Source of the DNA: Candidatus Bathyarchaeota archaeon
Lineage (GTDB): Archaea > Thermoproteota > Bathyarchaeia > 40CM-2-53-6 > RBG-13-38-9
Length of the DNA stretch: 64,000 nt
Direction of reading: 5' to 3'
Assembly (NCBI GenBank): GCA_963807605.1
Contig: CAWECG010000004.1
Coordinates: forward strand, 416,001-480,000
In this document: piece after piece, positions 23,601-56,782 of the stretch
Layout of the letters: every line of letters begins with the position of its first letter
How positions within the stretch are numbered: the first letter of the stretch is position 1
Program-made: the position numbers and the translations under genes
The notes under the pieces: generated by a model
What the model saw: the letters and a program-made list of their open reading frames with translations, nothing else
Told to the model about the DNA's origin: nothing
Database searches by the model: none

Positions 23601-23696
23601 GGGCCCGTAGTCTAGTCAGGATCAAGACGCTGAAGCAAACGCTGCGTAAGCCTGCGAAGCCGGAGATCCGGGGTTCAAGTCCCCGCGGGCCCGCCA
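23601..23696 (+). tRNA. tRNA-Arg(GCG) with 17-nt non-canonical intron at position 29/30 (23633-23649)
   Basis: Acceptor GGGCCCG/CGGGCCC; D stem GTCT/AGAC; T arm CGGGG-TTCAAGT-CCCCG; CCA encoded; removing the intron gives anticodon stem CTGGC/GCCGG with loop CT-GCG-AA; BHB helix ACGC/GCGT with TGA and AAG bulges. Confidence 0.92.
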
Positions 23697-23743
23697 CAAT
23701 ATTGGCTCAGATACGTTAATATGTAAGCCAGATACTCATACTC

Positions 23744-25270
23744 TTGAGCCACTTTACCTTGAAACCAGTCAAGAAATACGCTCATCTGCTCAAGGATGAA
23801 GATGTACGTCGCTGGCTTGAAAATCTGGAACGTGGAAGCCCAATAACGGCCGAGGTTGCCTGGAGAAGAATTGGGCGAGCATGCGAACTACTCAACACAA
23901 CCCCACAACAGATGGTAGAGTCTGCAAAGAAAAACCTGAATCAATTACAAGACTCACTCGCAGACATGGTTGCGGATCTCGAGAACCAGAAGAAGGCCCC
24001 AAGCTACATCCTAGGAATCCTGAAGGCAGCAAAGTCCTGGCTCAAATACAACAACATCACCATGACAAGAACGATAAAGGTCAGCAACGCAAGCGCTACT
24101 CCAACCGTCGATGACGAACAGGTCCCAACCAAGGAGGAGCTAGCCAGGATATTGCATGCCTCTCCACCGAGAATAAAGGTTGCCGAGGTTTTGATGGCAT
24201 TCGCAGACCTCAGACCCGAAACCATAGGAAACCACAACGGAAGCGACGGACTAACCATTGGCGACTTGCCCGAACTCAAGATCGAGAATAACCAGATATC
24301 TTTTACGAAGATGCCTACCATGCTTGTGGTCAGACGACCACTCAGCAAGACTAGAAAGAAATACTTCACCTTCCTCTCAAAGGAAGGATGTGACATCCTC
24401 AAGGAATACCTTGAACAACGCCTACGCGCCGGCGAGAAACTGACTCCCGACACTCCATTAATCGGCTATGAAAAACCCGGCAACGTGAAGAACCGGTTCT
24501 CATCAACCAGAAGAATAGGATACTTGATCAGAAACTATATGCGAGCAGCAGGAGTCCACAAGAGACCCTACGTGCTGCGAGCCTACGCAGAGACACAGCT
24601 GATCATAGTTGAAGGAAAGGGAAAGATCAGCCACCCCTACTTACAGTTCATAGCAGGACACAAAGGCGACATCGAAGCCACCTACAGCACAAACAAGGGA
24701 AGACTCTCCCCAGACATGATAGCAGACATGCGATCGCAATATCAAGCATGCGAACCCTTCCTGAATACAACAGCCACAATCTCGGATCAAAGCGACGTCG
24801 TCAAACAGACAAAGCTTGAAGTCTTGAAATCCCTCGCCAGAAGCATGGGAATAGACGTCAAAGACATCACACTAAACAAAGCAACAATGCTGAAGAGAGA
24901 ACTGACCATAGAAGAAGAACTTGAACTATACGAAGACAACCTCAAAAACCTCACAGAAAGACCAGCACCCATACCTGAAGACGAAGAACACAGATACAAG
25001 AGCAAACTCGTCACAGAAGACAAGCTGGAAAAGTACCTGAATAACGGATGGGAAATGGTCCAGATCATAAACAGCAAAATACTCATACGCAGAAGACTCC
25101 CCACTCCAGAAACAAAAGAAAAACAGGAAACAATAGAATCTTACCTCGAAGCAGAAGAGAAGAAAGCACGAAAGCCTCACACCGAGGCTGAAGAGGAAAC
25201 TGAAGTAAAACTCACAAGAGAAACCAAGAAAGCCTTAGCAGGACTCAGCGAACTAGCGGACAAGAGGTAG
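23744..25270 (+). CDS. Tyrosine recombinase/integrase with C-terminal extension
   Basis: Catalytic R (DLRPE), K (SKT), YxxR (PYVLR, in place of HxxR), H (AGH), Y (EATY); starts 47 bp after the tRNA. Confidence 0.88.
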   Translation: MSHFTLKPVKKYAHLLKDEDVRRWLENLERGSPITAEVAWRRIGRACELLNTTPQQMVESAKKNLNQLQDSLADMVADLENQKKAPSYILGILKAAKSWLKYNNITMTRTIKVSNASATPTVDDEQVPTKEELARILHASPPRIKVAEVLMAFADLRPETIGNHNGSDGLTIGDLPELKIENNQISFTKMPTMLVVRRPLSKTRKKYFTFLSKEGCDILKEYLEQRLRAGEKLTPDTPLIGYEKPGNVKNRFSSTRRIGYLIRNYMRAAGVHKRPYVLRAYAETQLIIVEGKGKISHPYLQFIAGHKGDIEATYSTNKGRLSPDMIADMRSQYQACEPFLNTTATISDQSDVVKQTKLEVLKSLARSMGIDVKDITLNKATMLKRELTIEEELELYEDNLKNLTERPAPIPEDEEHRYKSKLVTEDKLEKYLNNGWEMVQIINSKILIRRRLPTPETKEKQETIESYLEAEEKKARKPHTEAEEETEVKLTRETKKALAGLSELADKR

Positions 25271-25421
25271 ACTCGTTTAAGAAAACAAGCCAGAAAAGAG
25301 ACCTAAACACAAGCCTGCATCTGTATAAAGCTGAGCATAGTTTCATATAATTCTCAGCCGACACACCCGACACGACACGACGGGGCATCCCACCAGTTTT
25401 TCAAGGGTAGTAGGGTGAAAG

Positions 25422-25589
25422 ATCGGTTTTACACGAAAAAATCGGTTTTACACACGACGGACATCGGTTTTACAACCCCCACATCTCTCATTTTGTATAG
25501 ATGTAAGCCCTAAATCCTATCAAAATGACGGATTTACATGCCCATCTCAAAAGGTGCCATAGATCCCTCCTGTGTGAATCGGTTTTACA
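25422..25589 (+). repeat. Four direct repeats of ATCGGTTTTACA (25422, 25441, 25463, 25578)
   Basis: Exact 12-mers; iteron-like or arm-site-like. Confidence 0.85.
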
Positions 25590-26228
25590 AGCTCCGTCTT
25601 TCTCGGTTTTGCTTGCTAGAGGGTGTCTTTTTTACTGTTTTTAGCTGTTCTGGGATGGTTATTTTAGGGTTTTACTGTGATTGTTGTTTTTGCTTTGTTG
25701 TTTGTGGTTATTGCTCTATTGTTATTCTTACCTGGTTCTTTTCTATTTCCTGTTTTGTGTTCTTACCTTGTTATCTTGCTCTTTACTGTTGTTAGCTTAT
25801 GCTGTGTAGTCTTTAGGGTTCTTTTCCTCTGTGTATGAAGGATTGATTGTTATCCTGCACTCTATCTTACCCTTTATTGCTCTTACGCTCTCCTGCAGCA
25901 CTTTCGCCAAATCTCGATCATTCTTCTTCTCTCCATCTATGCACAGCTCCAAAGCCCTTGATCTACACAGTGATCCATCATCAGACTTGCCCTCTATCCG
26001 CCTCTTTCCCTTTGTCCCTAGCGATCGCTAACACATTGTTCTTTACGGTTTACGGAATGGTCTGTCTATTCTCTCAATCAGATTTACTATGTCCTGCTCT
26101 TTCACTTCTTACATGTCGAACCAATTCAGAAGATAGGTGGTGCGGGGAGTGGGATTTGGATTAAGTTCGGTTCCCTAACCTTACACTAATTACCAGCTGA
26201 TGATCAACGTTTCTCAGATATCACACTT

Positions 26229-26315
26229 GTCGTTCTAACAGTTCAAATTCGGGCGCTCTCACCAGCATGTCACACACACAAAATTGCGTGTTCCTCGCTT
26301 CGCTCGCATAACCAT
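26229..26315 (+). repeat. Degenerate direct repeat R, copy 1, containing tRNA 3' fragment GTTCAAATTCGGGCGCTCTCACCA (26241-26264)
   Basis: Shares gtcgtt..cagtt, ctcaccagc.atg.cacacac, ctcgct..cgctcgc, aaccat with 28394-28476. Confidence 0.65.
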
Positions 26316-26464: not shown

Positions 26465-26842
26465 TCAGAGATGTAGCTGCAGGACTGTGACGACAAAGCC
26501 TCTACGTTTCGCGTACTTCATGAAACGCCTCTGACCTGGCGTGAGGCTGCTGTTATTGACCTTGACCTCCAGAAACGCCAGGGTCGAGCCTGTATTCACA
26601 AGATAGTCCACACCAGAAGCTCCAGGCCGAGGATCCCTCAAGAAGTGCCTTAAGACCGCTGCGACTTTCTGCTGCTGCTCCTCTGATCCCTGGCTGTATG
26701 TTGCCAGGCTTGAAGTGTCCGCACGTGTGAATTGCCAGCGCTTCCCCTTAAGCCAGCTCTCGACCGCCTGCTCTCCTCTCTCCCCTACCGATAGCCAAGG
26801 CTTGCCGTCCATTTCATCAAACATTCCTGATAGTGCGGACAC
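26465..26842 (-). CDS. Small PD-(D/E)xK nuclease (VRR-NUC/Hjc-like)
   Basis: GERGE..V..WL, GVDYLV, FLEVK, LTPGQRRF. Confidence 0.75.
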   Translation of the reverse strand: MSALSGMFDEMDGKPWLSVGERGEQAVESWLKGKRWQFTRADTSSLATYSQGSEEQQQKVAAVLRHFLRDPRPGASGVDYLVNTGSTLAFLEVKVNNSSLTPGQRRFMKYAKRRGFVVTVLQLHL

Positions 26843-26866
26843 CTAGACCCTCTCGGACGTTGCAGG

Positions 26867-27958
26867 TTAGGTCAGCAGATACGATTTAACGCACGAAATC
26901 ACGTCCTTAAGATCGAGGGACGCAAGGTCTTCAAAGTACTCGTGGAGCTGCGGCTTGTGTCCTCTCGCCTCAGATGACAGCTCAAACCTCCGCTCTGAGG
27001 GCAGGTTCAGAAGTAGAGCGCATCTTATCAGAGTTCTAACGGCGCTTTCGTGCTCCTCTTGCGCATCTCTGAAATGCTTACTTTCCTTGAAAACAATTCT
27101 CCCCTCCTCATCGCAGCTGCAAAGTCCAACGTCTTCCTTAGCAAAATCGTCTCTCGTGCAATAAGGTCCCGCAACAAAACCTTGGGTGTAAAATGTGCTC
27201 ACGCTTATGTATTTCTCCAGTTGGCCTATGCCGCTTCCGGTCGAATGAGATTTCGTTCCCCTATCATAAGATTCAGCTTCAACGCAAGCTATCTCTGTCT
27301 TCCCGTCAAGGCGTGGAAGCTTCTCCGCATTCTCACGCTGGGGAAGCAACTCCAATTCCTCAATGAACGCCCCTTTTGACAGTAGACCCCCATCGACCAG
27401 AGCTTTAAGATATTCAGGAATGTAGTAACCGTAAATGTCTCCACCGCCGACTGTGTAATTTCCCACGAAGTATCCCATTTCTCTAAGCTTCAAACCGGTC
27501 ACGTATTCCCAGAAATCTTCCCCAGAACCGCATGCAGCCCAAACAATACAATCAGTGGGGTTAAGTCCAAGGCTTCGGGTCTCTTCCACGAACTCTTTGA
27601 AGCGAAATGGCCCTATGTTCCCCCTCCTAGAGACTGGTGGATCTCTGATAAACAGGTACTTTTCAGACTTGAAGTCTGGAAATAGCTCTAGATATTTTGA
27701 GATTGGAAGAGAGAGTAAAGCAGTAAGTTCGTTGGTCCTGTAGATATATTCGAGATCGGTCCCTGGGTATGATCGTAGTTGTAGCTGTTCTTGGTAGGAT
27801 GAGCCTCCTACAAGGGGGTTGAACTTGATTCCGAGTCTCTCGTTGTAGACGAAAGTTGCACTTGTATAGATCGATAGAATGATAGCGTCTCTGGCACTGA
27901 TTACAAAATCTGCTTTGTTGCTGGGGTCTTTTCGGAAGATCGAGAAGTTACTCAACAC
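26867..27958 (-). CDS. Restriction-endonuclease-fold protein
   Basis: GEDFWEY..LREMGY, GDIYG, VEAES, GIGQLEKY. Confidence 0.55.
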   Translation of the reverse strand: MLSNFSIFRKDPSNKADFVISARDAIILSIYTSATFVYNERLGIKFNPLVGGSSYQEQLQLRSYPGTDLEYIYRTNELTALLSLPISKYLELFPDFKSEKYLFIRDPPVSRRGNIGPFRFKEFVEETRSLGLNPTDCIVWAACGSGEDFWEYVTGLKLREMGYFVGNYTVGGGDIYGYYIPEYLKALVDGGLLSKGAFIEELELLPQRENAEKLPRLDGKTEIACVEAESYDRGTKSHSTGSGIGQLEKYISVSTFYTQGFVAGPYCTRDDFAKEDVGLCSCDEEGRIVFKESKHFRDAQEEHESAVRTLIRCALLLNLPSERRFELSSEARGHKPQLHEYFEDLASLDLKDVISCVKSYLLT

Positions 27959-28062
27959 CTTTTTGGCGGTCTGCGAATCTAGCAGACGCTCTCTTGTCTT
28001 GGGTATTGCTCGTTCCCTCCTATGAGGTGCTCATCTAACAGGATTGAGCCCATTACACGAGA

Positions 28063-28335
28063 TTAACGCTTTATCTGAAGGTTAGACCGTAGAGACGTTA
28101 ACTCAGCGTTGACTCGCACCACTTTTTCCTCTGTATCAAGTTTCAACACTTGTTTGAAATGTCTTTCTGCGCTTTTGTTGAGTTTTGGTATGAAGTCAAC
28201 TTTTTGCCCTTTGGTACTCCAAACAGGTGAGACTCCTCGGTCAGCAAGCCATTTTAACACTCCCTCCGGAGAACCGAGATTCCACTCTCGAAGAAGCGAC
28301 TTTGGCATACTAGAACCAACGGACACGTTCAACAC
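28063..28335 (-). CDS. Hypothetical protein or gene fragment
   Basis: 90-aa ORF upstream of the nuclease pair. Confidence 0.3.
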   Translation of the reverse strand: MLNVSVGSSMPKSLLREWNLGSPEGVLKWLADRGVSPVWSTKGQKVDFIPKLNKSAERHFKQVLKLDTEEKVVRVNAELTSLRSNLQIKR

Positions 28336-28393
28336 TTGCTTGCTATTTAGTTTTTGTTGATTAGTCGGTCACGCTTCAGGAGGAAGTTGAACC

Positions 28394-28494
28394 GTCGTTT
28401 CTGTCAGTTTTGTGCGTGTGCTCACCAGCTATGGCACACACGTCGTAACGGCTCGCTATCGCTCGCCGTGAACCATCAGGGGAAGAACCCCTGA
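28394..28494 (+). repeat. Repeat R, copy 2, including hairpin ACGGC..GCCGT and followed by hairpin TCAGGGG-AAGAA-CCCCTGA
   Basis: Similarity to 26229-26315; inverted repeats at 28448-28469 and 28476-28494. Confidence 0.65.
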
Positions 28495-28552
28495 AACCCC
28501 TCTCTGCCGAAGATCTTAAAGGATAGCATCTTGCACTCTAAATAGGGTCTTA

Positions 28553-29101
28553 ATGACCCAAGATAAACTAAGATGGTGGAAGATAGTACTATTTGCAGTG
28601 CCTTTACTCGTTACAATAATTCTTGCAGTCTATGTTTCAGCCGCTATCCTGTACACTTCAACCTTAACAAGTCAATACTCTATATCTTCGGCTAATTATC
28701 AGATAACTGTTCGACTCATTGGGTCAGGTGGTGGTGGTACCATCATAGACCCAACCAGTACAATCTATTGGAATAACGCTATAGCTTTGACTGCCGGACA
28801 TACATACGACTCACAATTTCTTTTTAGTGGTTTAATATATGCTACTCTCTGCATGCAAGTGATAAATACTGGAGCAAACACTGTTACACTAAGCGTTTCA
28901 TCAAATCTTCCGGCTAGTCAAGGAACAATAAGTTGGTCCGACTATACTGGGGTTAACGCTATCAGTGGAAACTCAGTTAATAGTCCCTTGGCTCCAGGAG
29001 GTTCCACGGGGACAATCATTCTACATCTCAATTTAGCATCGACCGCCCAGCCAACAACGGGTATTGCGACATTTCACATATATGTCAATGCAAATGGCTA
29101 G
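28553..29101 (+). CDS. N-terminally membrane-anchored Ser/Thr/Asn-rich surface protein
   Basis: Signal/TM helix followed by a beta-rich domain. Confidence 0.7.
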   Translation: MTQDKLRWWKIVLFAVPLLVTIILAVYVSAAILYTSTLTSQYSISSANYQITVRLIGSGGGGTIIDPTSTIYWNNAIALTAGHTYDSQFLFSGLIYATLCMQVINTGANTVTLSVSSNLPASQGTISWSDYTGVNAISGNSVNSPLAPGGSTGTIILHLNLASTAQPTTGIATFHIYVNANG

Positions 29102-29154
29102 CAAGATTACTCTGCCATCGCATGCTGTCCGCTTTATAATGCGGGGGAATTGAC

Positions 29155-29874
29155 CTGAGGGGCCGGCTCAAATACGTAGTAGCCATGTTAGCTTTTCTTA
29201 GCCTTGTGGCTCTAGCTAGAGCAGCAGTCCAGTACACATCCACGTTCACAAGCGAATATAGTGTGGCTCCCATCACAACAACTACCTCAACCCCTGCCAC
29301 AACAACAACTACTTCGGGAAGCACGTCAACAACAACTACCTCAACCATTACCACTCCTCACGCACGTGTCCCCCCAGGATTAGAGGGAGCCTGGGCACAT
29401 TCAAATATGAGTGTTGGCGCAAGGGCAGTGACTCAGGCCATATTTCTGAGAGGGCACCACGCGGTAGAGCTAGCATCTATAGCCATAACGGCAAACTCTA
29501 GCAACCAAATGATCCGGAATGTCGCTTACAACGATACGATTGTCCAAGTAGGGTTTGATCATAATGCGTCCTGCCAGTTGCTCATCAACTCATCTGCGAT
29601 GCCAACTGCAGTGTACGCAGATGACATAGTGCTCTTGGAGAAGCAATCAACGGCTGGATTGACGCCTCAGAGTGAGGCATGGGTCTACAACCAGAATAGT
29701 AGCGCCATTACAATCTTCGCTGATCCGTCAACCGTTACCATCTTCTATGGCTCAGCACCAGTTCCGGAATTTCCTGTCGCTTCAACTAGTCTATTGCTGC
29801 TCGTAACCTTCACTGCAGCCATAATTGTGGCCACACTAACAAGAAGAGAAGAAGGAAGAGGGCAAAAGCAGTAG
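29155..29874 (+). CDS. Thr-rich cell-surface protein with PEF-CTERM-type sorting signal (probable CTG start)
   Basis: Signal peptide, poly-Thr linker, VPEFP + TM + RR tail; CTG at 29155 in frame with ATG 29185 supplies the basic n-region. Confidence 0.75.
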   Translation: MRGRLKYVVAMLAFLSLVALARAAVQYTSTFTSEYSVAPITTTTSTPATTTTTSGSTSTTTTSTITTPHARVPPGLEGAWAHSNMSVGARAVTQAIFLRGHHAVELASIAITANSSNQMIRNVAYNDTIVQVGFDHNASCQLLINSSAMPTAVYADDIVLLEKQSTAGLTPQSEAWVYNQNSSAITIFADPSTVTIFYGSAPVPEFPVASTSLLLLVTFTAAIIVATLTRREEGRGQKQ

Positions 29875-30132
29875 AGGCGCCGCCACAAGCCTAACGACAA
29901 ACTTCCACGATCCCCTGAAACCTCTGAACCAGCCTCAGAACTTCATAAGAATGCCCCTACATATGTAGAGTCAGAATTCGGTCCAATTATAACCGAACAG
30001 GACCCCACCACGCCACAAAACACAGAGAAAGAGTTCTAAGAGATGTGAATAGTCGGTCAATCGACCTTGAATGCGCTCTATGGTGTCATGCTTTCCATCG
30101 TTTTGTTTCAGTTCAATGTCTGACGTGATTGG

Positions 30133-30480
30133 TCAATCTTGCTTCGGAGAATAGGCATGAGCAATGAAGAACGATACGAGATCTTTTGAAGCGTGCCATG
30201 CTGCGACATGTATCCCTTCGTGTGCCAACTGAGCTCCATATCGGACTAATTCATGTTGCGGAATAAGTGCGACCCATACGCAGTTTGGCATCCTTCGCCT
30301 TCTGGCCTTTATCTTCTGGAGCACGTTAGACACATCTGGCATCCTGAAATATACCTCGAAGCATACACGGTTCCCCGAAGCTGTCGTAGCAGTAACGTCA
30401 ATCTCCCCAGCTCTCTGCCCTTTTACAGGTGCTTCCCTTTCATATTGGCGGTAGTCCTCGTGGGTCAACTCTCTGACCAA
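30133..30480 (-). CDS. PD-(D/E)xK-fold protein or fragment
   Basis: GEIDVTA..RVCFEVY. Confidence 0.5.
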   Translation of the reverse strand: MVRELTHEDYRQYEREAPVKGQRAGEIDVTATTASGNRVCFEVYFRMPDVSNVLQKIKARRRRMPNCVWVALIPQHELVRYGAQLAHEGIHVAAWHASKDLVSFFIAHAYSPKQD

Positions 30481-30783
30481 TGCATTTAACCCATCGCCAT
30501 GTGAAACAAAATAGTCGATAAGCTCATCCTGATTTCGGAACGTGTCAACACCTCATAGTCTAAAGTTACATTATCACAAAGATAAAGTCTAGAGAATGAA
30601 GCACTTCGCCTTGATGTCGTCACTGCTAATGATCGTGATCCTCTCCAGATTCATAGTAGCCTTCGGTGTTGCATACGTCAGGTCTAAACGCATGAGCCTT
30701 AGCCATATTATGGTGAGTTCTATGCCTTCCCACGGTTATAGGATAGCCCTTCAGATAAGAAACCCTAAAGGACTCGATGTGGC

Positions 30784-31416
30784 ATGGTCAGAATATACCT
30801 GGACATAGAAACATACAGGCCCAAAAAAGAAGGCGCTTTCACAGATGAGAAGATAGTCTTAGTCGGGTTAATCCGAGACGAAACTCTCTACAAGGAGAAC
30901 AGTCTGAGAGAACGTGCCGAACCCATCCTCTTTTCCGAGTGGCCGGAAGGTTCAGAGAAACAGATACTCGTGTCCACATTTGAATTCATAGAGCAAATGA
31001 CCCAAACCCACAAGTTCACTATAATCGTAGGGTTCAACATTCTCCGGTACGACATCCCCTTGATGATCGTTAAGGCGACCGACCACGGGATTCAGAAAGT
31101 TGACGATATTTCTAAGTTCTGGTACAATGTTTTCACTGCAGACTATTTTCAAGAACTTTTACCAGCCAACCAGAACTTGTTCAAAGGACTAAGACTGGAC
31201 AGGCTCGTAGAAAAGGCAAAAGAGCTTGGTGCGGATCCTCCTGAGATCTTCGGAACTGGTGCGGATGTCAAAGAATGGTATGAAAAAAAGATGTACGACA
31301 AGATTGAGAAGCACATCACACAAGACCTGCAGATTGCCCGCTGGCTTGACCTATTTGGTGCGAAGCGTCTAATTGCCGAATCGCTTCGACTTCAAGCTCC
31401 GCTTTTCCGGGAGTGA
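30784..31416 (+). CDS. RNase H-like DEDD 3'-5' exonuclease
   Basis: YLDIET, GFNILRYDIP, HITQDL. Confidence 0.8.
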   Translation: MVRIYLDIETYRPKKEGAFTDEKIVLVGLIRDETLYKENSLRERAEPILFSEWPEGSEKQILVSTFEFIEQMTQTHKFTIIVGFNILRYDIPLMIVKATDHGIQKVDDISKFWYNVFTADYFQELLPANQNLFKGLRLDRLVEKAKELGADPPEIFGTGADVKEWYEKKMYDKIEKHITQDLQIARWLDLFGAKRLIAESLRLQAPLFRE

Positions 31417-31440
31417 GCCAACAAAGCACTTGACTCCGAC

Positions 31441-31629
31441 ATGACGCTACAACCTAGCACATAAGCTACAACAGCAACACCTACGCCTACCATAGGACCA
31501 TCTACCGCTCAACCAAGCTTAGACACCAGTACTCTCGAAATGTTAGCTGGAGTGGTAATCGTCGTTCTTGTAGTTGCTGGAGTCTTCATCAGAAAAAGAA
31601 GGAAAGCCCCCACGAAGGCTTCAGAATAA
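31441..31629 (+). pseudogene. C-terminal remnant of a surface protein (Thr/Pro linker, TM, basic tail)
   Basis: ATTATPTPTIGPST...MLAGVVIVVLVVAGVFIRKRRK; in-frame TAA at 31462. Confidence 0.6.
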
Positions 31630-32095
31630 ACTCGCCAGTGGAGCTTTGTTTATCTTATTACACATCTTTGCCCAAGTTTTCTATCCTCCTAACACTTTCT
31701 TCGATCGACGCTAAGCATCAGTCGTCCAGCCTAGCAAGACGTCAGATTCTAGTGGTGGGTATCTTTTGATGAGGGCGTCCAAATCTGAACCGCTGGGCAC
31801 TAGAGTACTATTTGCTGCATCCAGTAAATTCATTTGACCAAGTGCGATGTAATGATGCGATCGCCGGGACTCAAATTGCTAGCCTTCTATTTCTAGGACT
31901 TGGGAAATTGGTCCGAGTCTACTCCACTTCTGCGACCCTTATCTTCTCTATTGACTTCTTCCAAGCTCTTTTTCATGGTCCAGCCAAGGGAAGAGAGGTA
32001 TATCTCTCTACCCAACTATCTCCAGCGACCTGAAGACCCGCCACGCCAGCCATGTGGATGTAGAACCTTAGGGGCCCCTCTAGTGGAGGATTGTC

Positions 32096-32726
32096 ATGGT
32101 AAATAGAGATGAGATGCTTGACCGTTGGATTAGAGCCTCGATGATAAGGAATTTCAAAGCTAGCTGGAAGCCGATTGCACTGGAAAGAGAGGAGACATAT
32201 GAGTCTGTGAGACCGGATAAACCATCTCACTCATATAGAGGCAGGCGATCGCCTGAAGGCGTTCTGGTAACAGGGTTCATTCGGTTGAAACCTCTTGGTG
32301 AAGGAGACTATTCGAGGCGTGAGTTCAGTGTAGGCAGAGAGTGGGGACCGAGAAGCCTCACTACATAATTGACCGTACACGCGGAGTTAAGAGACGAATA
32401 TATCCGTCGGACGAAGCTTACAAACAGTGGCTCAATATATTCCCGCCAGAAAGGGTAATAACGAGTCCACCGAGAAGAATCAACCTCGTATTCGAGAACG
32501 ACTATGAAATGTGGCTTCTAGAAGCTAAAGCTGACCCAGACAAGCTGGAGGAAGCCCTAGGACAGGTGCTGGTGGACAGAACTCTATTCAAAAAGATAGC
32601 ATCTCTCATAAGCCTATTCGACTTGGCATGATCTGTAAGGAGTGCCCTCGACATATTGAAGAGACTTGTGAGGAGCTCGACATAACGGTCTTCGAGAGAA
32701 CATTGAATGGTTTTGGGGGAAGCTAA
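32096..32726 (+). pseudogene. Frameshifted PD-(D/E)xK nuclease
   Basis: Three consecutive frames give ..RINLVF..WLLEAK..EALGQVL.. then IRLGMICKEC..IEETCEELDITVF. Confidence 0.6.
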
Positions 32727-33408
32727 AAGAGAAGGAGAGAAAAGGGTAGACTTGGTATTGACATGGTTAGTTAGACGCAGGGAACATCACAATGTGGACC
32801 GATGGCTTCTCATTGGGCCAATCATATTTCTCGTCCTTACGATTGGGATATTTGTTGAGGCGCCTGCATTCTACTTCGGACCCAAGGTACGAAATGTAGA
32901 GACCGACTCGTATACTACAATTAACTTCACTGAGATTCTGTATCAGATCCCGCTTATTGTTGCTACGGGCCTTGTCGCAGTCGCCACATATCTTGTATTT
33001 CGCGCAACAAAGGAGATGGCACATAACATTATTAGGCCATTCCTTATCGTAAGGCCTTCCACACCTCATGAAAGAGAAGAATATTTTCTCTGCCGCAACT
33101 TCCCCGATGGCAGTCAGCCAGAGCGGTGGGAATTCATCAATAAGAAAGGCATCATTTTGGAGAACGTGGGTCTTGGTCCTGCTGTGAAGGGTAAAGTCAC
33201 AGTGAGGGTCGACGGAAGATCCATGAGCGAAACTTTCGGTAGACTATATAGATCTGAGGCTGATGGAGAATTTCGCTACTTCTATCCGAGCCCCAGCTCG
33301 CGCAATATTGAGATTCCTGAGGACGTTCACGAGATATCGGTCGGGATGCAGTACTACGACATAGCAGAGAAATACTACTCTCAGAGGGCCCAGCGTATCG
33401 CGGTTTAG
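32707..33408 (+). CDS. Membrane-anchored hypothetical protein
   Basis: Two TM helices plus LENVGLGPA Ig-like motif. Confidence 0.6.
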   Translation: MVLGEAKREGEKRVDLVLTWLVRRREHHNVDRWLLIGPIIFLVLTIGIFVEAPAFYFGPKVRNVETDSYTTINFTEILYQIPLIVATGLVAVATYLVFRATKEMAHNIIRPFLIVRPSTPHEREEYFLCRNFPDGSQPERWEFINKKGIILENVGLGPAVKGKVTVRVDGRSMSETFGRLYRSEADGEFRYFYPSPSSRNIEIPEDVHEISVGMQYYDIAEKYYSQRAQRIAV

Positions 33409-34218: not shown

Positions 34219-34232
34219 CGAATGATGCATTC

Positions 34233-47612: not shown

Positions 47613-47636
47613 GGTATATAAGAGGGGGAAGAGATT

Positions 47637-47674
47637 ATATAAGTTTGAACCTATATATCAGTTCGGACTTATAT
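47637..47674. promoter_or_regulatory. 38-bp imperfect palindrome overlapping the divergent pdxS / thrC-padR promoter region
   Basis: ATATAAGTTTGAAC-N10-GTTCGGACTTATAT (12/14 arm match); TTATATAA at 47635-47642. Confidence 0.7.
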
Positions 47675-49139
47675 GGTTCTGCTATGTTCAGATTGTGGCG
47701 TCAATTACGCGGACTCTGAGGCGCTCAGGGTCTGCCGAAGATGCGGGCAGCCTCTATCGGTAACCTATGACTACGACAAGATCAGGGAGACACTTAGCAT
47801 CAAAGAGATCTCCAAGAGACCTTTTCGGCTATGGAGGTATCTCGAACTGCTGCCCATCACAGAGGAGGCTCATGTGATCTCACTGGGCGAGGGCGGAACC
47901 TACCTGCATAGATGCGATAGGCTCGCCAAATCATTGAGGTTAAAGAAGCTATACTTGAAAAATGAGACCACCAACCCTACTGGCTCATTTATGGATCGGG
48001 GCGTAACGGTCACTGTCACCAAGGTTAAACAAACAGGAATCAGAACCGTCTGCTGTGCCCCAACAGGGAATCTTGGCTCCTCCCTAGCAGCCTACGCAGC
48101 CAAAGCAGATCTAGAATGTAGAGTCTTCATCTCACATGAGGTGGACCTTGGTAAGCTCTACCAGATGATAGCCTTCGGTGCCGATGTCCAGACCGCCAGA
48201 GACATAGACGATGCATATCAAAAGGCCACTAGGATCGCTGATAAGAGCTACTTGGTAACCCCAGAAGATCCATACCTCCTCGAGGGAGAGAAGACTATAG
48301 GATATGAAATATGTGAACAACTCGATTGGCACACACCAGACTTGATAGTAGTTCCAATGGGAAGCGGCGGAAACCTCTCAATGATCTGGAAGGGAATTCA
48401 GGAATTCCTCCAAATCGGCTTAATCCGGAATAGTCATGCAGCCATGGTCGGCATTCAGAGCTCAAGCCACTCACCGATAGTAGACGCCTTCAAGGGCGCT
48501 CGTAAACTAGAAAAATCCAAGGGAGAAGGAAGATCTTTAGCTGTTGACATAGCTGTCAAGAATCCCGCTCTTGGAGACGCAGCCTTGAAGGTGATAGAGG
48601 CCTCAAAAGGCATAGCAACAAGCGTCTCCGACAACGAGATTCTAGAAGCAACACGATTACTTGCAAAGACAGAAGGGATCTTCGCCGAACCTGCTGCAGG
48701 CTCCACAATTGCCGGGCTTACGAAACTGGTAGAGTCTGGAGAGGTGGCCAGAGACCAAGAGGTCGTCTGCATAATAACAGGCTCAGGGCTCAAAGACCCT
48801 TACACCGCCCGTAAGTTTGCAGATGAAATGAAGCGTACTCGCAAACTCGTAAACAGTATCGACGAAGGTAGGGATGTCAGGCTCGGCGGTACAAAAATGA
48901 ACATCCTCAAGATCCTTCAGAATAGAGAACTTTATGGTTATGGCATATGGAAGGAGCTGTTAACTTATCATTCGAAAAAAGTCACCATGCCAACAGTGTA
49001 TCAACATCTACAAGAGATGGAGATGCGGGGATTGCTCAAACGTACAAGAAGAGAGGAATCAGTGGGAAGACCAGACCGCTGGTATTACATCCTAACAGAG
49101 AGGGGCAGGGAGGCTCTAAAAGCCTTCAGCAGACTATAG
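47673..49139 (+). CDS. Threonine-synthase-like fold-II domain (catalytic Lys replaced by Met) fused to C-terminal PadR-like wHTH
   Basis: SLGEGGT, NPTGSFMDRG (canonical SFKDRG), EGIFAEP, TGSGLKD; then ILKIL..YGYGIWKEL..PTVYQHL..LE..GLL..YYILTERGRE. Confidence 0.85.
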   Translation: MVLLCSDCGVNYADSEALRVCRRCGQPLSVTYDYDKIRETLSIKEISKRPFRLWRYLELLPITEEAHVISLGEGGTYLHRCDRLAKSLRLKKLYLKNETTNPTGSFMDRGVTVTVTKVKQTGIRTVCCAPTGNLGSSLAAYAAKADLECRVFISHEVDLGKLYQMIAFGADVQTARDIDDAYQKATRIADKSYLVTPEDPYLLEGEKTIGYEICEQLDWHTPDLIVVPMGSGGNLSMIWKGIQEFLQIGLIRNSHAAMVGIQSSSHSPIVDAFKGARKLEKSKGEGRSLAVDIAVKNPALGDAALKVIEASKGIATSVSDNEILEATRLLAKTEGIFAEPAAGSTIAGLTKLVESGEVARDQEVVCIITGSGLKDPYTARKFADEMKRTRKLVNSIDEGRDVRLGGTKMNILKILQNRELYGYGIWKELLTYHSKKVTMPTVYQHLQEMEMRGLLKRTRREESVGRPDRWYYILTERGREALKAFSRL

Positions 49140-49344
49140 CACCTGATCCAATAGAGAATATCGAGGGTCAGTATCACGTCGGGCCGCCCAAGGTCAGACA
49201 GCTCAGACTCAAATGTCGAATGTTATGTTATGAACCTCAATTTCAACCCAATTTCCTCAACAAAAATGCTCTGGGCCCGGTTCGAACATCAGAGGTATGA
49301 ACCCGCGTGAATTTTGAGCCCAAATCTAGCACCGTTAACGCATC

Positions 49345-49442
49345 GAATCCCGTCGGGCTCGCCAACAATAATCGATAAAAATTGTGGCATAATAACGGCG
49401 ATTGTGGTCTACAGGCAATTCAGGTATTCGCACCTAATAAGG
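49345..49442 (+). repeat. 98-bp direct repeat X, copy 1
   Basis: 11 mismatches to 56662-56759 by manual count. Confidence 0.95.
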
Positions 49443-49697
49443 GGTGCATACCGGCGGCTGCACCATTCTAGCGGTTCACAGTATCATCTGTAGACAAGAT
49501 TCCTGAACCTAAACAATTCGCCTTCGACACGGCTGTGAAAGTGTGAATCCCGCCCGGTCCACCATTCTGCACGTTCCGAATGAAAACGGTCTTTTTACGC
49601 ACTATCTTGGAGCTGTGGAAGAGCCACTTGCGAGAGGTAGATAGTTCTTATTCATATCTAGCTAATCAAATCCCGGCGGCCGCACCAATGATTTTTG

Positions 49698-49837
49698 TAT
49701 TGCTTGGTTCATTTGACTGTCATGACTTCCGCCCGCTATTCGAGCCCTAACCAAAGTGAATTGGCCTAAATGCTGAACCGTTCAGATCGGTCAATTTTGA
49801 TGGTATCTGACTCTTTATTTAGTCCAACACCCGCGGG
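49698..49837 (+). repeat. 140-bp direct repeat Y, copy 2
   Basis: Matches 35721-35860. Confidence 0.95.
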
Positions 49838-49854
49838 CCGGCAATTCTCAGTGC

Positions 49855-50700
49855 CTACGTGCTACCGTCTTCTGTTTCAGATCTTTTCGTATGCTGAAGG
49901 GTGGCCATCTTGAGGCGGGACGTCATTTTTCTCAGTTTCTCCGTTGTCCTAATGGGTGATCCATGATTCTGCTCAATCACTTTGACAAACACGCTTCCAA
50001 CGATAGCCCCATCAGCTCCAGCTGCCACAATCTCTCTGATCTGTTCAGGGGTTGATATTCCAAAGCCGGTTGCAAGTGGAATCTCGTCCCTTATGTAGGA
50101 ACGAAACTCCTTAACTAACCTCACAGTCGAATCTGGGAGCCTTCTCCTGGCTCCAGTTACACCAAAGAGTGAGACTAAGTATAGAAAACCTGATGTGTAT
50201 TTCAGGATTTCCTGCAGTCTTTCCGCTGTGGTGGAGGGTGCTGCGAGAAATATTGTGTCGATCTTGGCTTCATCAGCGATCCTCTTGTAAGTGTCTGCCT
50301 CTTCAAAGGGCAGATCAGGGATTACTATCCCGTCAACCCCATTCATCTTTGCTAGTTCCAAGAAATTCTTCAGTCCGCTTTTGTAGATTATGTTATAGTA
50401 GGTCAGAAGTACGACGGGGATCCTGTGTTTTTCCTTGATCTTCTTTACGATCTTCATGACCAGTGGGGGCTTGGTTCCGGCTTTCAATGCTCTGACTGTT
50501 GCAGCTTGAATCGTCGGCCCATCCGCAATTGGATCAGAGAATGGGATGCCAAGTTCAATTACGTCTGCACCTCCTTCAACTAGAGCATCCACAATTCTAG
50601 GAGTGAATTTTGGAGATGGATCGCCCGCGGTCACGTACGTGATCAGCGCGGCCTCATTCCTCTCGCTCAGATCTCTGAAGGTTTCTGCAATAATGGTCAA
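49855..50700 (-). CDS. trpA: Tryptophan synthase alpha
   Basis: [28 protein letters not shown]. Confidence 0.96.
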
Positions 50701-51896
50701 AGTCTTCGCCCCATTCTTCCAGCCACAACCTCCACATCCTTGTCACCTCTTCCTGAGATTGTGACCACGACACCTTCTTCGCTGTTCATCTTGGGTACTA
50801 TCTTCTTCATGTGTGCTAGCGCATGGCATGTCTCCAAAGCTGGAATAATCCCCTCTGTCCTGGAAAGCTCACAGAAGGCTTCCAGGGCCTCTTTGTCTGT
50901 GGCTGTGGCATACTCGACACGCCCTATACTGTGAAGATAGGAGTGTTCTGGGCCGACTGCTGGGTAGTCGAGGCCTGCAGAGACACTGTGGGTTGGCTGT
51001 ACCTGGCCATAGGCGTCTTGGAGAAGATAGGTTAGCATGCCATGGAATACCCCCTCTGACCCTGCACAGATTGAGGCTGCATGCTTTCCAGTCTTAATTC
51101 CTCTTCCTCCGGCCTCGACGCCATACATCTTTACGTTGTCATCATTAAGGAAGTGGTGGAATGTTCCTATGGCGTTGCTGCCGCCTCCAACGCATGCGAA
51201 GAGTGCGCTAGGTAACTTCTTCTCCTTCAGCAGGATCTGTTCCTTGATCTCCTTTCCAATGATACTCTGGAGGTCTCTTACGATCATTGGGTAGGGGTGA
51301 GGTCCTACCGCTGATCCAATCAAGTAGTATGTTGTCTGGGGGTTGGTCGTCCAGTCTCGGAGGGCCTCGTTTATCGCATCCTTCAGTGTCCTTGAACCCG
51401 AATCCACAGGGTGGACCTTCGCCCCGAGTAGCTCCATGCGGAAGACATTGAGCCTCTGCCTCTTCATATCCTCGGTTCCCATGTAGATCTCCGCATCCAG
51501 ACCTAGGGTAGCGCATGCTATCGCCGTGGCCACTCCATGCTGGCCTGCGCCGGTCTCCGCGATAACCCTCTTCTTGTTCATCCTCTTGGCCAGGAGAGCT
51601 TGACCTAGTGTGTTGTTGATCTTGTGGGCTCCTCCGTGAGCCAGATCTTCCCGTTTCAGATAGATCCTTGGGCCCCCGTACCTGCTGGATAGATTCTTGG
51701 CATAGTAGAGGGGTGTCGGTCTGCCAGCGAACTCTCTTAGATAATGGTCGAGCTGGTTCTTGAAATCAAGGTCCTCCTTGAAGCTAAGGTATGCATCTTC
51801 CAGCTCGCTGAGCACAGACATCAGAGTCTCAGGTACAAAGCGTCCTCCATACTTACCGAATTTGCCCTTGAACAAATTGGCCTGTTGCAGGTTCAA
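50697..51896 (-). CDS. trpB: Tryptophan synthase beta (TrpB1)
   Basis: [30 protein letters not shown]. Confidence 0.97.
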
Positions 51897-52537
51897 TATG
51901 CAGCCTCCCTAGCTTTCCTGATGAACTCGGTCATCTTCTCAGGATCCTTAACCCTAGGACGCACCTCGACCCCCGTTGAGACATCGACCCCGTATGGCCT
52001 AACCGTACTTATCGCGTGGCCGACATTCTCTGGAGTGAGCCCTCCGGCAAGAATCATGGGTGCCGGGTATATTGCGTCCCTGATTTTTCTGCTTAAACTC
52101 CAGTCGTGTACAAGGCCTGTCCCTCCACGACCAGTCTGATCATGGGTGTCTACCAATACGGCTTGAGAGAATCTCGAGTATGACAGAGCTTGTTCGATCG
52201 CATCAAGCGCTCCAACATCAACAGCTACTATTACCTTGACTCTTGATGCCAAACCATTCCGGCGATACGATTCAGAAGCCACTCCATGAAGTTGTAGGAA
52301 TTTTGGAGCCAGCTCTTGGCAGATCTCCGCGGTTCTTTTTATTCCGTTGAAGACCGTCACTACCACGCTGTCCACGTTGCTTGGCAATCGGTCTATCAGG
52401 TTCTTTGCTTCTCTGAAAGAGAGATTTCTCGGTGATGCGGCTATGTCGACAATGAATCCTATGGAATCAACACCGGCCTGGACAGCTATATCCAAATCTT
52501 CCTGTTGAGTTACTCCGCAGATCTTTACTTTCACCAT
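51893..52537 (-). CDS. trpF: Phosphoribosylanthranilate isomerase
   Basis: [30 protein letters not shown]. Confidence 0.95.
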
Positions 52538-52543
52538 CTGGAT

Positions 52544-53317
52544 CTATGCCTCCGCCAGCTCCCGGACTTTCTCTTCAGGGTTGAGAGCTGACATGATGGA
52601 TGATCCAACTAGGAAAGCACTCGCTCCACACTCTCTGAGGAAACGAACATGATCTCCGGTGTCGATTCCACTCTCACTCACGACAACATGGTTGCTTGGG
52701 TGGCGTGAACTCAATATCTTCCTTGTGACATCCAGATCTGTCTGCAGGGTCGAGAGATCTCGATTGTTTATTCCAATGAGGTCAGCCTCGGTGCTGAGAG
52801 CTCTTTCGAACTCTTCTGTGGTATGGGCCTCAAGCAGAATCTCCATACCTCTGTCATGCGCTAGATCTATCGTTCCTTCAAGATCGTTATCGCATAGGTT
52901 TCTCTCGAAGAGAGATTCGATCAGCAGTATCGCTTCAGCTCCGATCCTGGATGCGGCTTCAACCTGGATTGGATCGACGATTATGTCTTTCATGAGCCGC
53001 GGAAGGCCACATCTACGCGCGGTTATGAGGTATTCAGTTCTGCCTCTGAAGTGTTTCGGCTCGGTCAAGATCGATAAGCCGACTGCACCACCCAGTTTCA
53101 TCATCGACGCCAAAGCTTCAACGTTAATGTTCTGAGTGATGATCCCCTTCGAGGGTGAGGCGGGTTTGATCTCAGCTATTACTGGATTCCTCTTGCATTT
53201 GAGAATCGACTCTTTGAGCCCCATGCCGACTCTCTCATGAGATTGCTCAATATGATAGTAGCCTTCCGCAACGGTCTCTCTGGCATCCCTTGCCAGGATA
53301 TCTAGATAGTCACGCAG
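52544..53317 (-). CDS. trpC: Indole-3-glycerol phosphate synthase (probable CTG start)
   Basis: IAEIKPASPSKG, GINNRDL, SESGI; frame open upstream of ATG 53224 to CTG 53317. Confidence 0.93.
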   Translation of the reverse strand: MRDYLDILARDARETVAEGYYHIEQSHERVGMGLKESILKCKRNPVIAEIKPASPSKGIITQNINVEALASMMKLGGAVGLSILTEPKHFRGRTEYLITARRCGLPRLMKDIIVDPIQVEAASRIGAEAILLIESLFERNLCDNDLEGTIDLAHDRGMEILLEAHTTEEFERALSTEADLIGINNRDLSTLQTDLDVTRKILSSRHPSNHVVVSESGIDTGDHVRFLRECGASAFLVGSSIMSALNPEEKVRELAEA

Positions 53318-54368
53318 TTATCTCCAGCTCCTCAAGTCTCGACAGGTTGCCGCCAGTGAACTCGATCAGCGAGACGAGTTTTCCGTAAGCTGCACCGCTC
53401 TCAATTGACTGGGCAGCGAGCTCGAGGCCTTCTTCGAAGCTTTCTGCTTTCCCTCCGACTACGATGCCTGCGGCTGCATTGAGTAGTACTATGGCTTGCT
53501 TGGGATCCCTGTGGGTACAGTGGCCTCTCATAATCCTAAGAGTCGCCACCGCGCTCTCATGGGTAGTTGAGCATCGCAGCGCCTCGGGTTTGGCTTTCTC
53601 TATACCAAAGTCCTCTGGCTCGATCGTGAAGCTGCATATCTCATCCTCTCTTAACCAAGAGATCTTGGTCCCTCCGACTGTGGAGACCTCGTCTAAGCCG
53701 TCGAGGCCGTGCACAACCATTGCTTGCTTGACACCAAGGTTTGAAAGTACGCTCGCTAGTGGTTCGGTCAAGGATTCTTGGTATACACCCAGAAGCTGGG
53801 CTGTTACGTTGGCCGGATTGGTCAGAGGACCCAGAATGTTGAACACTGTTCTGATCCCGATCTGACTCCTAGGGTTGACTGCATACTTCATTGCTGGGTG
53901 AAATGCTGGAGCGAACATGAATCCAATCCCAACCTCCTCTATTGCTTTCTCCACCGTCTCTGTTGGTATGTTGAGCCTGAGCCCCAGGGTCTCCAGAACG
54001 TCGGCGCTTCCACATCGGCTTGTCACAGACCGGTTCCCATGCTTTGCAACAGGTATGCCTGCGCCAGCGATGACAAAGGCGGACACTGTACTGATGTTGA
54101 ATGTCTTGACCTGATCGCCGCCTGTTCCACATGTGTCGACTAGGTTGCCTGCAACTTCAGGGTTAATCCGGTGGCAACAGCTTCTCATTACTCTTGCAAG
54201 TGATGTGATCTCGTCTACGGTCTCACCCTTCATCCTGAGGGCTGTCAGGAATGCGGCGATCTGTGCGTCTGTGGCTTTGCCCTCCATGATCTCCTGCATG
54301 ACCTCCCGTGCCTCTTTCTGTGTCAGGTCTCTTCGCTCAACGAGTTTTGCAATGGCTTCCTTAATCGT
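53310..54368 (-). CDS. trpD: Anthranilate phosphoribosyltransferase (probable ACG start)
   Basis: DTCGTGGD, NIST, KHGNR; upstream in-frame IKEAIAKLVERRDLT with GGAGGT SD. Confidence 0.93.
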   Translation of the reverse strand, partial: TIKEAIAKLVERRDLTQKEAREVMQEIMEGKATDAQIAAFLTALRMKGETVDEITSLARVMRSCCHRINPEVAGNLVDTCGTGGDQVKTFNISTVSAFVIAGAGIPVAKHGNRSVTSRCGSADVLETLGLRLNIPTETVEKAIEEVGIGFMFAPAFHPAMKYAVNPRSQIGIRTVFNILGPLTNPANVTAQLLGVYQESLTEPLASVLSNLGVKQAMVVHGLDGLDEVSTVGGTKISWLREDEICSFTIEPEDFGIEKAKPEALRCSTTHESAVATLRIMRGHCTHRDPKQAIVLLNAAAGIVVGGKAESFEEGLELAAQSIESGAAYGKLVSLIEFTGGNLSRLEELEITA

Positions 54369-54954
54369 CTCGGTAACCTCCGTCTAGGAAGTTTCTGAGA
54401 ATTCTTTTTCCTTGGTTGGTCAGGATAGACTCCGGATGGAACTGTAGGCCCTCGATTGGGTACTTGGTGTGGCGAATACCCATTATTTCGCAATCATCAA
54501 GAGAGTAGGCTGTTGCCTTCAAACAGTCTGGGAGCGAGAACAGATCAGCTACGAGGGAGTGGTATCTGGTGGCCTCAAGTGGATTTGGTGTGTCTCGGAA
54601 GATCCCTTTTCCGTCATGTTTTATCAGGCTGGTCTTGCCGTGCATCAGCCTCTGTGCTCTGATGATCTTTCCTCCAAAGGCATGTACGATCCCTTGATGC
54701 CCAAGGCAGATACCTAGTGTTGGTATGTGTCTGCTTAGATCTCTCAGGATGGCCAAGCAGTTGCCGAAGTATCGGGTTTCTGCTGGTGTTCCAGGTCCAG
54801 GGGAGAGAATCACTCTGTCGGGGTTGAGTCGTCTTGCCTCTCCTAGAGTCACCGTGTTGTTTCTGTGGACAACTGGTGTTCCGCCAAGTTCACCGACATA
54901 CTGTGCGATGTTGTATACGAATGAGTCATAGTTGTCTATTATCAGGACTTTCAA
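54361..54954 (-). CDS. trpG: Anthranilate synthase component II
   Basis: IDNYDSF, SPGPG, GICLGHQ, QFHPES. Confidence 0.95.
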   Translation of the reverse strand: MKVLIIDNYDSFVYNIAQYVGELGGTPVVHRNNTVTLGEARRLNPDRVILSPGPGTPAETRYFGNCLAILRDLSRHIPTLGICLGHQGIVHAFGGKIIRAQRLMHGKTSLIKHDGKGIFRDTPNPLEATRYHSLVADLFSLPDCLKATAYSLDDCEIMGIRHTKYPIEGLQFHPESILTNQGKRILRNFLDGGYRDD

Positions 54955-56373
54955 ATCATTTCACCCGCCTTCTCCAAGGCCTTCATGAGAGCCGCGGCTT
55001 TTTGTTCTGTTTCAAACCATTCTTTCTCGGGGTCTGAGTCAGCCACTATCCCTGCGCCTACTTGGATTGAGGCTTTATTCTGATGGGTTGTCAGGGTACG
55101 GATGGTTATGGCAAAGTCTGCGTTTCCGTTGTTCGAGAAGTATCCGACGGCGCCCGCGTATGGTCCTCTTCTTGTGGGTTCAAGTTCCTCAATTATCTCC
55201 ATGGCTCTGACTTTCGGTGCTCCTGAGACAGTTCCGGCGGGGAGCATGGCTTTGAGTGCGTCAAAGCAATCCATGTCTGGACGTATCTTTCCGACGACTC
55301 TGGAGACGATGTGTTGGACATGACTGTATTGGTGTACAGTCATGAATTCAGGTGTGTGGACTGACCCAAACTCAGCTATTCTGCCGATGTCGTTCCGTGC
55401 CAGGTCTACAAGCATCACATGTTCAGCCCGCTCCTTCGGGTCTGAAAGCAACTCTTCAGCCAAGATCTGGTTCTTGGCTTGATCGTCGGTTCTTGGTCTG
55501 GTCCCGGCTATCGGATAGGTCTCCACGAGACCATTTTCAACTCTCACAAGCATCTCAGGACTTGAACCTACGACCTGTCTTTCTCCCATTTTGAGAAAAT
55601 ACATGTATGGGGATGGGTTGATGTTTCTCAACGTTCTGTAGAAGTTGATGAGGCTGCCCTCGAAGTTGAAGTTATAACGTTTTGAAAGGACTGCCTGGAA
55701 GATGTCTCCCGAAGAGATGTAGTTCTTGGCTTTCAAAACAGCCTCTTGAAAGTCGTCTTTTGAAGTATTCGATGTTGGGGTGGTGTATCTGAAGGGTTCT
55801 GGATCGGTGATGGCCTCTTGGATTCTGCTTTTGATCTCTGCCAATCGATCCCTGTTTTGAAAGTAGTAGTATGCTGTTCTGTTGATGTGATCGAAGACTA
55901 TCCCATCGTCAAAGAACGCCATCTCGAGATCTGGGAACTTGAGATCATCGGTGGCGGATTCCGGAATCTTTTCCCAGTACCTTACCGCATCATACGAGAT
56001 GTATCCTACGGCACCACCTGCGAGACGAAACTGGTCGAATGTTAAATGATTCCTCTGAATCTCACTTCGCATGATGTCAAGTGGATTGTGCGTTTCTTGG
56101 CATTCGTCTCCTGATGTCATGCTAGTGGTTCTTGCCACATGTCCTTTGACAGAGATCACTAGGTGTGGGTCAAACCCTATGAACGAGAACTTCGCCAGTT
56201 TTTCCGGGCCTTCAACTGACTCTAGAAGATATGTGTACCCGCTGTCTCCCTCAAGTCTTGCAAAGATATCTGCTGGCGTGTCGGTGTAGGGGATCTCTTC
56301 AAGATTGACCTTAGGCGATTTTCTGGAAGTTGGCTCCTCTAGTCTTGAGGTTTGTCCAAAGGCGATACCCCAT
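54951..56373 (-). CDS. trpE: Anthranilate synthase component I; N-terminus lacks an in-frame canonical start
   Basis: NPSPYM, SSPE, PAGTVSGAPK; conserved YLLES..FIGFDP lies upstream of the ORF-track start; nearest ATG (56373) is one base out of frame. Confidence 0.9.
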
Positions 56374-56381
56374 TTACGCTA

Positions 56382-56410
56382 GTCCCCTGCATATCTGATG
56401 CATTAGGGAC
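56382..56410. promoter_or_regulatory. Inverted repeat just downstream of the putative trp TATA box
   Basis: GTCCC-c-TGCAT-atctg-ATGCA-tta-GGGAC; TTAAATA on - strand at ~56421-56427. Confidence 0.5.
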
Positions 56411-56660
56411 ACACGAGTTCTATTTAAGGTTAGTGAGTACACTATTGTACATCTATATGCCTCACAACTTGAGAAGACCGACCATTATGTGCTTGACAGG
56501 ACAGAACACGAACACTGAAGCCTGTCCTCACGGTCCAATCGCACGCTGCTGAGAAAATCCGGCATAGTCAGAAAGTTCCTTCGCGGAGCTTGAAAGTGTA
56601 AGTTCGAATTATAGGAGAAAAAAATCAATTTTGAGCTCGGTCATGGCAACTATAACGTTA

Positions 56661-56782
56661 CGAACCCCGTCGGGCCCGCCAACGGTAATCGATACAACTT
56701 GCGGCATAATAACGGTCATTGTGGTCTGTAGGCAATTCAGGTATTCGCACCTAATAAGGCTCGAGTACCCGCGGGCCCGCCA
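56661..56782 (+). repeat. Repeat X copy 2 between two tRNA 3' fragments (56661-56681; 56758-56782 = candidate attR)
   Basis: CGAACCCCGTCGGGCCCGCCA and GGCTCGAGTACCCGCGGGCCCGCCA. Confidence 0.88.

Follow-up and report, generated by a model that had tools for sequence, protein, structure and literature searches.

The window analysed here is a stretch of 64,000 nucleotides from a Candidatus Bathyarchaeota archaeon (C4:416001-480000 of a 2.65-Mb genome in five contigs). It contains a 33-kb island behind a transfer RNA (tRNA) gene, in which modules for urea use, vitamin B6 and tryptophan are separated by fragments of the 3' ends of several different tRNAs, called tails below. With a probability of about 0.6, the island is best read as the product of accretion through several integrases, accompanied by cross-recombination of related tails that left arrays of mobile adapters. 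Units of about 100 bases move between genera, and therefore look like adapters shared by several insertion enzymes and not like a true integron. The original prediction had called the island integron-like.

Judged from sequence, the island is the Arg-tRNA element of an integrase encoded at its left end. The left attachment (att) site, attL, lies at 23669-23696, and the Arg tail at 56755-56782, which agrees with it at 18/20 nt and carries arm B of this integrase clade, is likely the right site, attR. The left end consists of the following features:

23601-23696, plus strand: tRNA-Arg(GCG) with a non-canonical intron, downstream of lysS; left end (attL) of the island
23744-25270, plus strand: intact non-suicidal tyrosine integrase of 508 amino acids (R157, K202, YxxR 276-279, H306, Y314), of the clade using arm B

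The open reading frame (ORF) at 23744-25270 is assigned to the intact tyrosine integrases because PF00589 is matched by 5 of its 15 aligned relatives, the alignment shows no variation at the catalytic R, K, YxxR, H and Y positions, and the predicted model finds XerA as its best fold match, followed by IntI, Cre and lambda Int. The protein itself has no Pfam or NCBIfam match, and a sequence search of the PDB was empty; its placement there came from the fold search alone. The integrase search in genome contigs gave no match. A viral origin of arms or integrase was also considered and found no support, as viral contigs yielded no match to either, an absence that does not exclude such an origin. 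The claim of a single integrase holds only within the island, because integrase genes or their remnants number at least ten in the genome and belong to several families. At the same lysS/tRNA-Arg hotspot, relatives carry other integrases, tails or contig breaks.

Several further observations touch this region and the host. Between lysS and the tRNA, a short tandem repeat of two 18-nt units lies at 23360-23420. A non-coding block with repeated motifs 3' of the integrase (25422-25700) is common to three other sites of the genome and is possibly an origin or regulatory region. Contig C2 of the host (88.8 kb) is small and dense in integrase fragments and tails, and may be an island or a separate element. 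Host tRNAs in general carry non-canonical introns.

For the tail scan, 36 host tRNA 3' ends were compared with both strands of the genome, and a score of at least 14 defined a strong tail. There are 45 such matches outside tRNA genes, compared to 1-2 in shuffles. The island has nine strong tails, where its length alone would predict 0.56 (P 4e-9) and shuffles of the island give 0.04; every other 33-kb stretch has at most five. The island is thus the densest cluster in the genome, although the other 36 strong tails lie elsewhere, most of them behind other tRNAs. Ten of the fragments originally noted agree with the final 20 nt of host tRNAs at 16-20 positions. They are 35211 (Leu), 35523 (Glu), 35695 (Ile/Ala), 45869 (Gly), 49337 (Lys(CTT)), 49438 (Gly), 49537 (Ala), 49660 (Gly), 56654 (Lys(CTT)) and 56755 (Arg). 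Two more are decayed tails of Arg type, at 35841 (10/13 of the core) and 49818 (11/13 of the core). Differing acceptor types had been noted and were confirmed, except for a Thr-like tail, whose candidate is of Glu type. The fragment at 26241 is one of 46 genomic copies of a separate dispersed repeat of about 50 nt. Common orientation is true of the ten listed tails but not of all, because a genuine Leu tail occupies the minus strand at 26138-26165. The likeness to tRNA begins in the T-loop, and the 5' T-stem is lost.

The tails and the gene-less units between them are arranged as follows:

26138-26226, minus strand: inverted att site, arm U2 with Leu tail (from the tail scan and arm family)
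35203-35238, plus strand: Leu-family arm with Leu tail (arm and tail match)
35463-35550, plus strand: arm U2 with Glu-type tail (arm and tail match)
35595-35722, plus strand: arm 7 with Ile/Ala-type tail (arm and tail match)
35721-35866, plus strand: gene-less unit copy 1 with degenerate Arg-type tail at its end, 94% to 49698-49837
45831-46005, plus strand: Gly-family arm with Gly tail (45869-45896), followed by a downstream arm that is truncated at a short GC run ahead of pdxT
49175-49190, plus strand: degenerate Lys-like tail (13/16)
49279-49364, plus strand: arm A with Lys(CTT) tail, first site of a five-tail array (arm and tail match)
49365-49465, plus strand: gene-less unit ending in arm B with Gly tail, sister of 56682-56782
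49451-49563, plus strand: gene-less Gly-to-Ala unit, 96% in another genus (G008), where likeness stops at both tails
49565-49687, plus strand: gene-less unit ending in a Gly-family arm with a perfect Gly tail (arm and tail match)
49688-49843, plus strand: gene-less unit copy 2 with Arg-type tail at its end, fused 11 nt from the trpA stop
56627-56681, plus strand: arm A-like sequence with Lys(CTT) tail (arm and tail match)
56682-56782, plus strand: 101-bp gene-less unit ending in arm B with Arg tail, likely attR, absent in a soil strain

Additionally, direct repeats of 140 and 157 bp flank modules.

It can be seen that the tails do not stand alone. Conserved upstream arms of at least seven families precede them, and three families have arms that are reverse complementary to the sequence following an intact tRNA, usually ahead of an integrase. 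The mirror of arm A lies behind tRNA-Lys(TTT) with an integrase directly after it; that of arm B lies behind a tRNA-Arg, directly followed by an integrase 68% identical to that of the window; and that of the Leu arm lies behind tRNA-Leu, with an integrase beginning about 0.5 kb away. It is well established that tyrosine-recombinase sites consist of a short, asymmetric core between inverted binding arms. By this layout, each tail is the core of a tyrosine-integrase att site, composed of upstream arm, tRNA tail and downstream arm. Arms as the 3' ends of integrase genes were rejected after an empty tblastn search; no integrase sequence occurs within 300 bp upstream of any tail, and the window integrase gene is unsplit. 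The Leu-family site, arm plus Leu tail as at 35203, was found in 9 of 151 genomes of the class. The site common to the host, a same-genus relative and other class members was matched only in records named Bathyarchaeia.

Arms, tails and integrase targets are extensively mixed. Arm A is paired with five tail types (Lys(CTT), Lys(TTT), Ala, Gly and Val), arm B with Arg, Gly and Lys tails, and arm 6 likewise with three types. Leu tails occur with two upstream and two downstream arms, in every one of the four possible combinations. Sister integrases of two genomes, on branches of 0.03 and 0.04, sit at Arg(CCG) and Val(TAC) respectively with the same downstream arm, and one integrase clade occupies five ends (Arg, Met/Ile, two Val tRNAs and a Lys tail). 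In G175, a Val-tailed integrase unit lies 82 bp behind an intact tRNA-Lys. Among distinct close tail pairs (45-260 bp apart, ten genomes), 21 of 22 join different tRNA types, whereas accretion at one site predicts matching pairs. Ten of the 36 host tRNAs share one acceptor strand ending CGGGCCC, and cross-reaction would therefore be easy. Relaxed target specificity and switching of tRNA targets are known for archaeal integrases (PMC7253208, PMC8371274).

Units of about 50 bp that carry tails back to back, Leu on one strand and Ala or Gln on the opposite one, are shared between genomes:

G000 C3:765452-765499, L074:12521-12568 and L075:1701-1744, both strands: back-to-back Leu/(Ala or Gln) units

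Breakpoints in relatives map to tails, including breakpoints between tails of different tRNAs, as had been anticipated. As judged from aligned contigs, gene-less units have been gained, lost and passed between genera at these places. G008 has its own five-tail array, which holds the 113-bp unit 49451-49563 at 96%, with breakpoints at both tails. The 101-bp unit is missing in the soil strain (run X1), where 56670 is joined to 56772 over 10 shared letters. The trpA stop adjoins a tail in every close relative found. In four metagenome loci (L114/L117, L115, L116 and L125) the trpA end is fused to a tail; the place of the junction is constant and the arm and T-stem vary, being Lys(TTT) or Lys(CTT) with two arms, versus Arg in the host. 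Two more variants of this junction occur in Logan contigs (X5 and X7). In a same-genus relative, G001, the trp operon differs in part from that of the host but likewise lies between two tails, and the start of an integrase follows. Assembly artefacts are unlikely because the arrays and junctions recur in independent assemblies. A further Logan joint, 45904 to 49541, had one side under 30 and was unused. The sequencing runs contain at most 0.22 of the words; therefore no habitat claim is made from them.

These observations suggest the following course. Accretion may have enlarged the island, its modules being served by several families of integrases whose genes lie elsewhere in the genome. Off an essential tRNA gene, a mismatch between att sites would cost nothing, and sites of different tRNAs could thus recombine, as the junctions of the relatives suggest; the crossover would fall near the T-stem and acceptor. 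Deletion of cargo would then leave units of 50-160 bp that combine the arm of one family with the tail of another. Such units may act as adapters or landing pads, at which any resident integrase could add, drop or relocate the flanking operons. We infer which enzyme serves which arm, real cross-specificity, and the benefit of adapters.

Several points weigh against this reading. The assignment of arms to integrases, drawn from symmetry and adjacency only, is inferential. Homologous recombination between short GC-rich tails could also take place with no integrase involved. The comparison, which is limited to contigs of related strains, showed neither an excised circle nor activity, and the Logan joints are single low-depth contigs compared at 85% likeness. 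The relatives' loci were chosen for holding an arm or tail, and so show mixing and not the frequency of arrays. Moreover, trp and pdx occur without tails in most relatives, and in run X7 the likeness of the pdx module extends from one stop codon to the other only, short of the tails.

The earlier alternative of long accretion from many tRNA loci comes closer than a single promiscuous recombinase but leaves the movement of gene-less units between genera unexplained. In a passive history, strictly specific elements entered at their own tRNAs, and co-integration, homologous recombination and deletion piled up dead att sites whose units are inert passengers. Most arm families do prefer one tail (Leu arm 11/11, Gly arm 3/3), many sites are decayed, the 140- and 157-bp repeats could serve homologous recombination, and tandem accretion and decay are established processes (PMC5704250; 10.1101/2020.12.28.424599). 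This history is nevertheless unlikely, as likeness between genera stops exactly at both tails, the trp junction swaps the T-stems of different tRNAs, and the near-random mix of tail types in close pairs is unlike same-site accretion. A tentative possibility, somewhat bolder than multi-integrase accretion, is distributed gene capture. Here mobile gene-less adapters under selection would join att sites of different tRNAs, so that a pool of integrases of overlapping specificity could plug whole metabolic operons into any tRNA locus and shift them from one such locus to another, in an integron-like manner with no dedicated enzyme or site.

A true integron-like system, in which the neighbouring integrase would accept every tRNA tail, taking up operons as cassettes and shuffling them, is highly doubtful. 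An intact integrase does head the island, arm B occurs with Arg, Gly and Lys tails, and gain and loss at tails were seen. The loss of the 5' T-stem, the seven or more arm families and the several integrase families speak against the proposal that one recombinase acts on all tails through the T-arm. Furthermore, no integrase like that of the window was found in the 16 kb read at the G008 array, and the cargo operons are encoded on the opposite strand and have upstream regions of their own. The genome yielded no IntI (best TIGR02249 score 34 bits against a cut-off of 265), and attC-like folding of the tails was rejected, with 0 core pairs, no stable single-strand hairpin and fold z-scores of -1.7 to +1.0. 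Instead of co-oriented single-gene cassettes, the cargo comprises modules of 3-11 genes on either strand or gene-less units. Of the integron features tested, only gain, loss and reordering at a repeated site was found, in relatives. Very little credence can be given to arrays kept by selection, either as decoy landing sites that spare essential tRNA genes or as tRNA-like signals for RNA processing or termination between operons. Gene-less arrays persist and spread, and the constant tail beside the trpA stop would suit such a role. However, the tails lack the 5' T-stem and acceptor partner and therefore form no tRNA-like fold, those at trp and ure are antisense to the messenger RNA, and intact tRNAs are still occupied by elements. 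Multi-integrase accretion with cross-recombination thus remains the preferred reading.

The cargo between the tails comprises one block of element type and the three metabolic modules, which lie where they had been predicted:

26465-35173, strand not assigned: element-type cargo, mostly unknown ORFs, with one VRR-NUC-like and one PolB-exonuclease-like protein
36130-45194, both strands: Lrp (plus) and urease module (minus) with UT, ureA, ureB, ureC, cpn60, ORF, ureE, ureF, ureG and ureD, ordered by homology
46042-49139, both strands: pdxT-pdxS (minus) and a ThrC-like/PadR fusion (plus)
49855-56159, minus strand: trp operon with trpE, trpG, trpD, trpC, trpF, trpB and trpA

The pdxST genes are present as predicted, but their supposed regulator is a ThrC-like pyridoxal phosphate enzyme fused to a PadR domain. 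Urease was found in 0 of 40 relatives. The copies most like it (90-91%) are found downstream of a tRNA-Leu, next to another integrase or in the midst of housekeeping genes; the next-nearest relatives are Nitrososphaeraceae (nearest named). The pdxS gene occurs in 7 of 40 relatives, mostly without tails, while trp is common, usually tail-free, and its trpB identity does not track kinship. No relative examined has all three modules together. From this distribution the operons are regarded as captured chromosomal blocks. The claim that whole operons are bounded by tails holds for trp in the host and G001, but not for the trp and pdx copies of most relatives.

Several side observations concern these modules. 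The cpn60 gene of the urease operon is split into two ORFs in the window (39889-41461) and is intact, at 517-518 amino acids, in three related loci. A related urease module lies by a PF00589 integrase (L142:16500-16900 and 7550-7750), with flanking 25-bp direct repeats and a tRNA-like tail after ureD. In a genome of another family (G030, L034:5445-16207), the same lysS-tRNA-Arg pair is followed at 2.5 kb by a trp operon that has the orientation seen in the window but no tails.

Apart from the tails, two other repeated features occur in the island. The dispersed repeat of about 50 nt is present in two copies:

26234-26284, plus strand: copy of the repeat
35364-35405, minus strand: inverted copy of the repeat

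This repeat has a tRNA-end-like geometry, and cas1 homologues occur elsewhere in the genome. The second feature is alternating GC runs of at least 8 nt, of which there are 320 genome-wide, 91% of them non-coding and clustered in variable regions; runs in the window include those at 33495, 41490 and 46005. Some joints between arm and cargo and some cut genes lie at such runs. One trp copy in a relative has a GC-run junction without a tail as its upstream end, and in G001 (L040:7050-7720) a GC run immediately upstream of the att site that flanks trp marks the point where a glyA-like gene breaks off. GC runs as a specific site of cargo capture were rejected: only 9 of 320 lie within 300 bp of a tail, and the runs are therefore a separate genome-wide feature.

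With its catalytic residues, intact tRNA and duplicated 3' end, the island is assigned to the tRNA-targeting, non-suicidal tyrosine-integrase islands. A split integrase of the SSV type was not found, the att site lying outside the intact gene, and the arrays are not those of CRISPR, as the repeats differ, the periods are 99-160 bp and spacers recur elsewhere. As in tandem accretion, internal att copies separate integrase-less modules; these copies do not all come from the anchor tRNA. Integrative and conjugative, integrative mobilizable and cis-mobilizable elements (ICE, IME and CIME; PMC5704250) similarly form integrase-less att-flanked modules with usable chimeric internal att sites and cis-mobilisation by a neighbouring integrase. 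However, their sites come from one target gene, whereas here at least five tRNAs are mixed and units move between genera. The tycheposons of Prochlorococcus (10.1101/2020.12.28.424599) are likewise tRNA-anchored islands with nutrient cargo, internal partial tRNAs and tyrosine integrases, but every island is reported to belong to a particular tRNA and a particular integrase. In the present case the targets of sister integrases are different tRNAs, and these are mixed within a single island. Archaeal tRNA-targeting integrases that switch targets, such as the pT26-2 family (PMC7253208, PMC8371274), show relaxed specificity for tRNA 3' ends, and related enzymes are found at many tRNAs. The ones examined by biochemistry are suicidal, with att inside the gene, unlike the intact genes beside the site here, and mixed att arrays do not appear in the parts consulted. 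The sections consulted on cryptic elements of Thaumarchaeota (PMC6563490) describe short att repeats at tRNA 3' ends, intron-containing targets and nesting, with a single att pair per element and no multi-tRNA adapter arrays. Integrons, including archaeal ones (PMC9668308), also add or drop modules at repeated sites near an integrase and have sites served in trans, but the island differs in lacking IntI, attC and folded single-strand sites and in having multi-gene cargo and several enzymes. The closest kin of the island are CIME accretion and tycheposon islands. The island differs from them in mixing tRNA types and in its mobile gene-less units; no description of mixed-tRNA att arrays or of such units was found in the open-access literature searched.

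Bathyarchaeia dominate many sediments, and their metabolism is very patchy. The finding offers a concrete route for the gain and loss of tryptophan, vitamin B6 and urea use in this class. The adapters also provide a testable answer to how non-suicidal integrases may switch targets without wrecking a tRNA, as the swap would happen first at spare sites. Natural combinations of arm and tail map the specificity rules of an uncharacterised integrase family. In addition, programs that search for islands on the assumption of a single att pair will mis-call regions of this kind.

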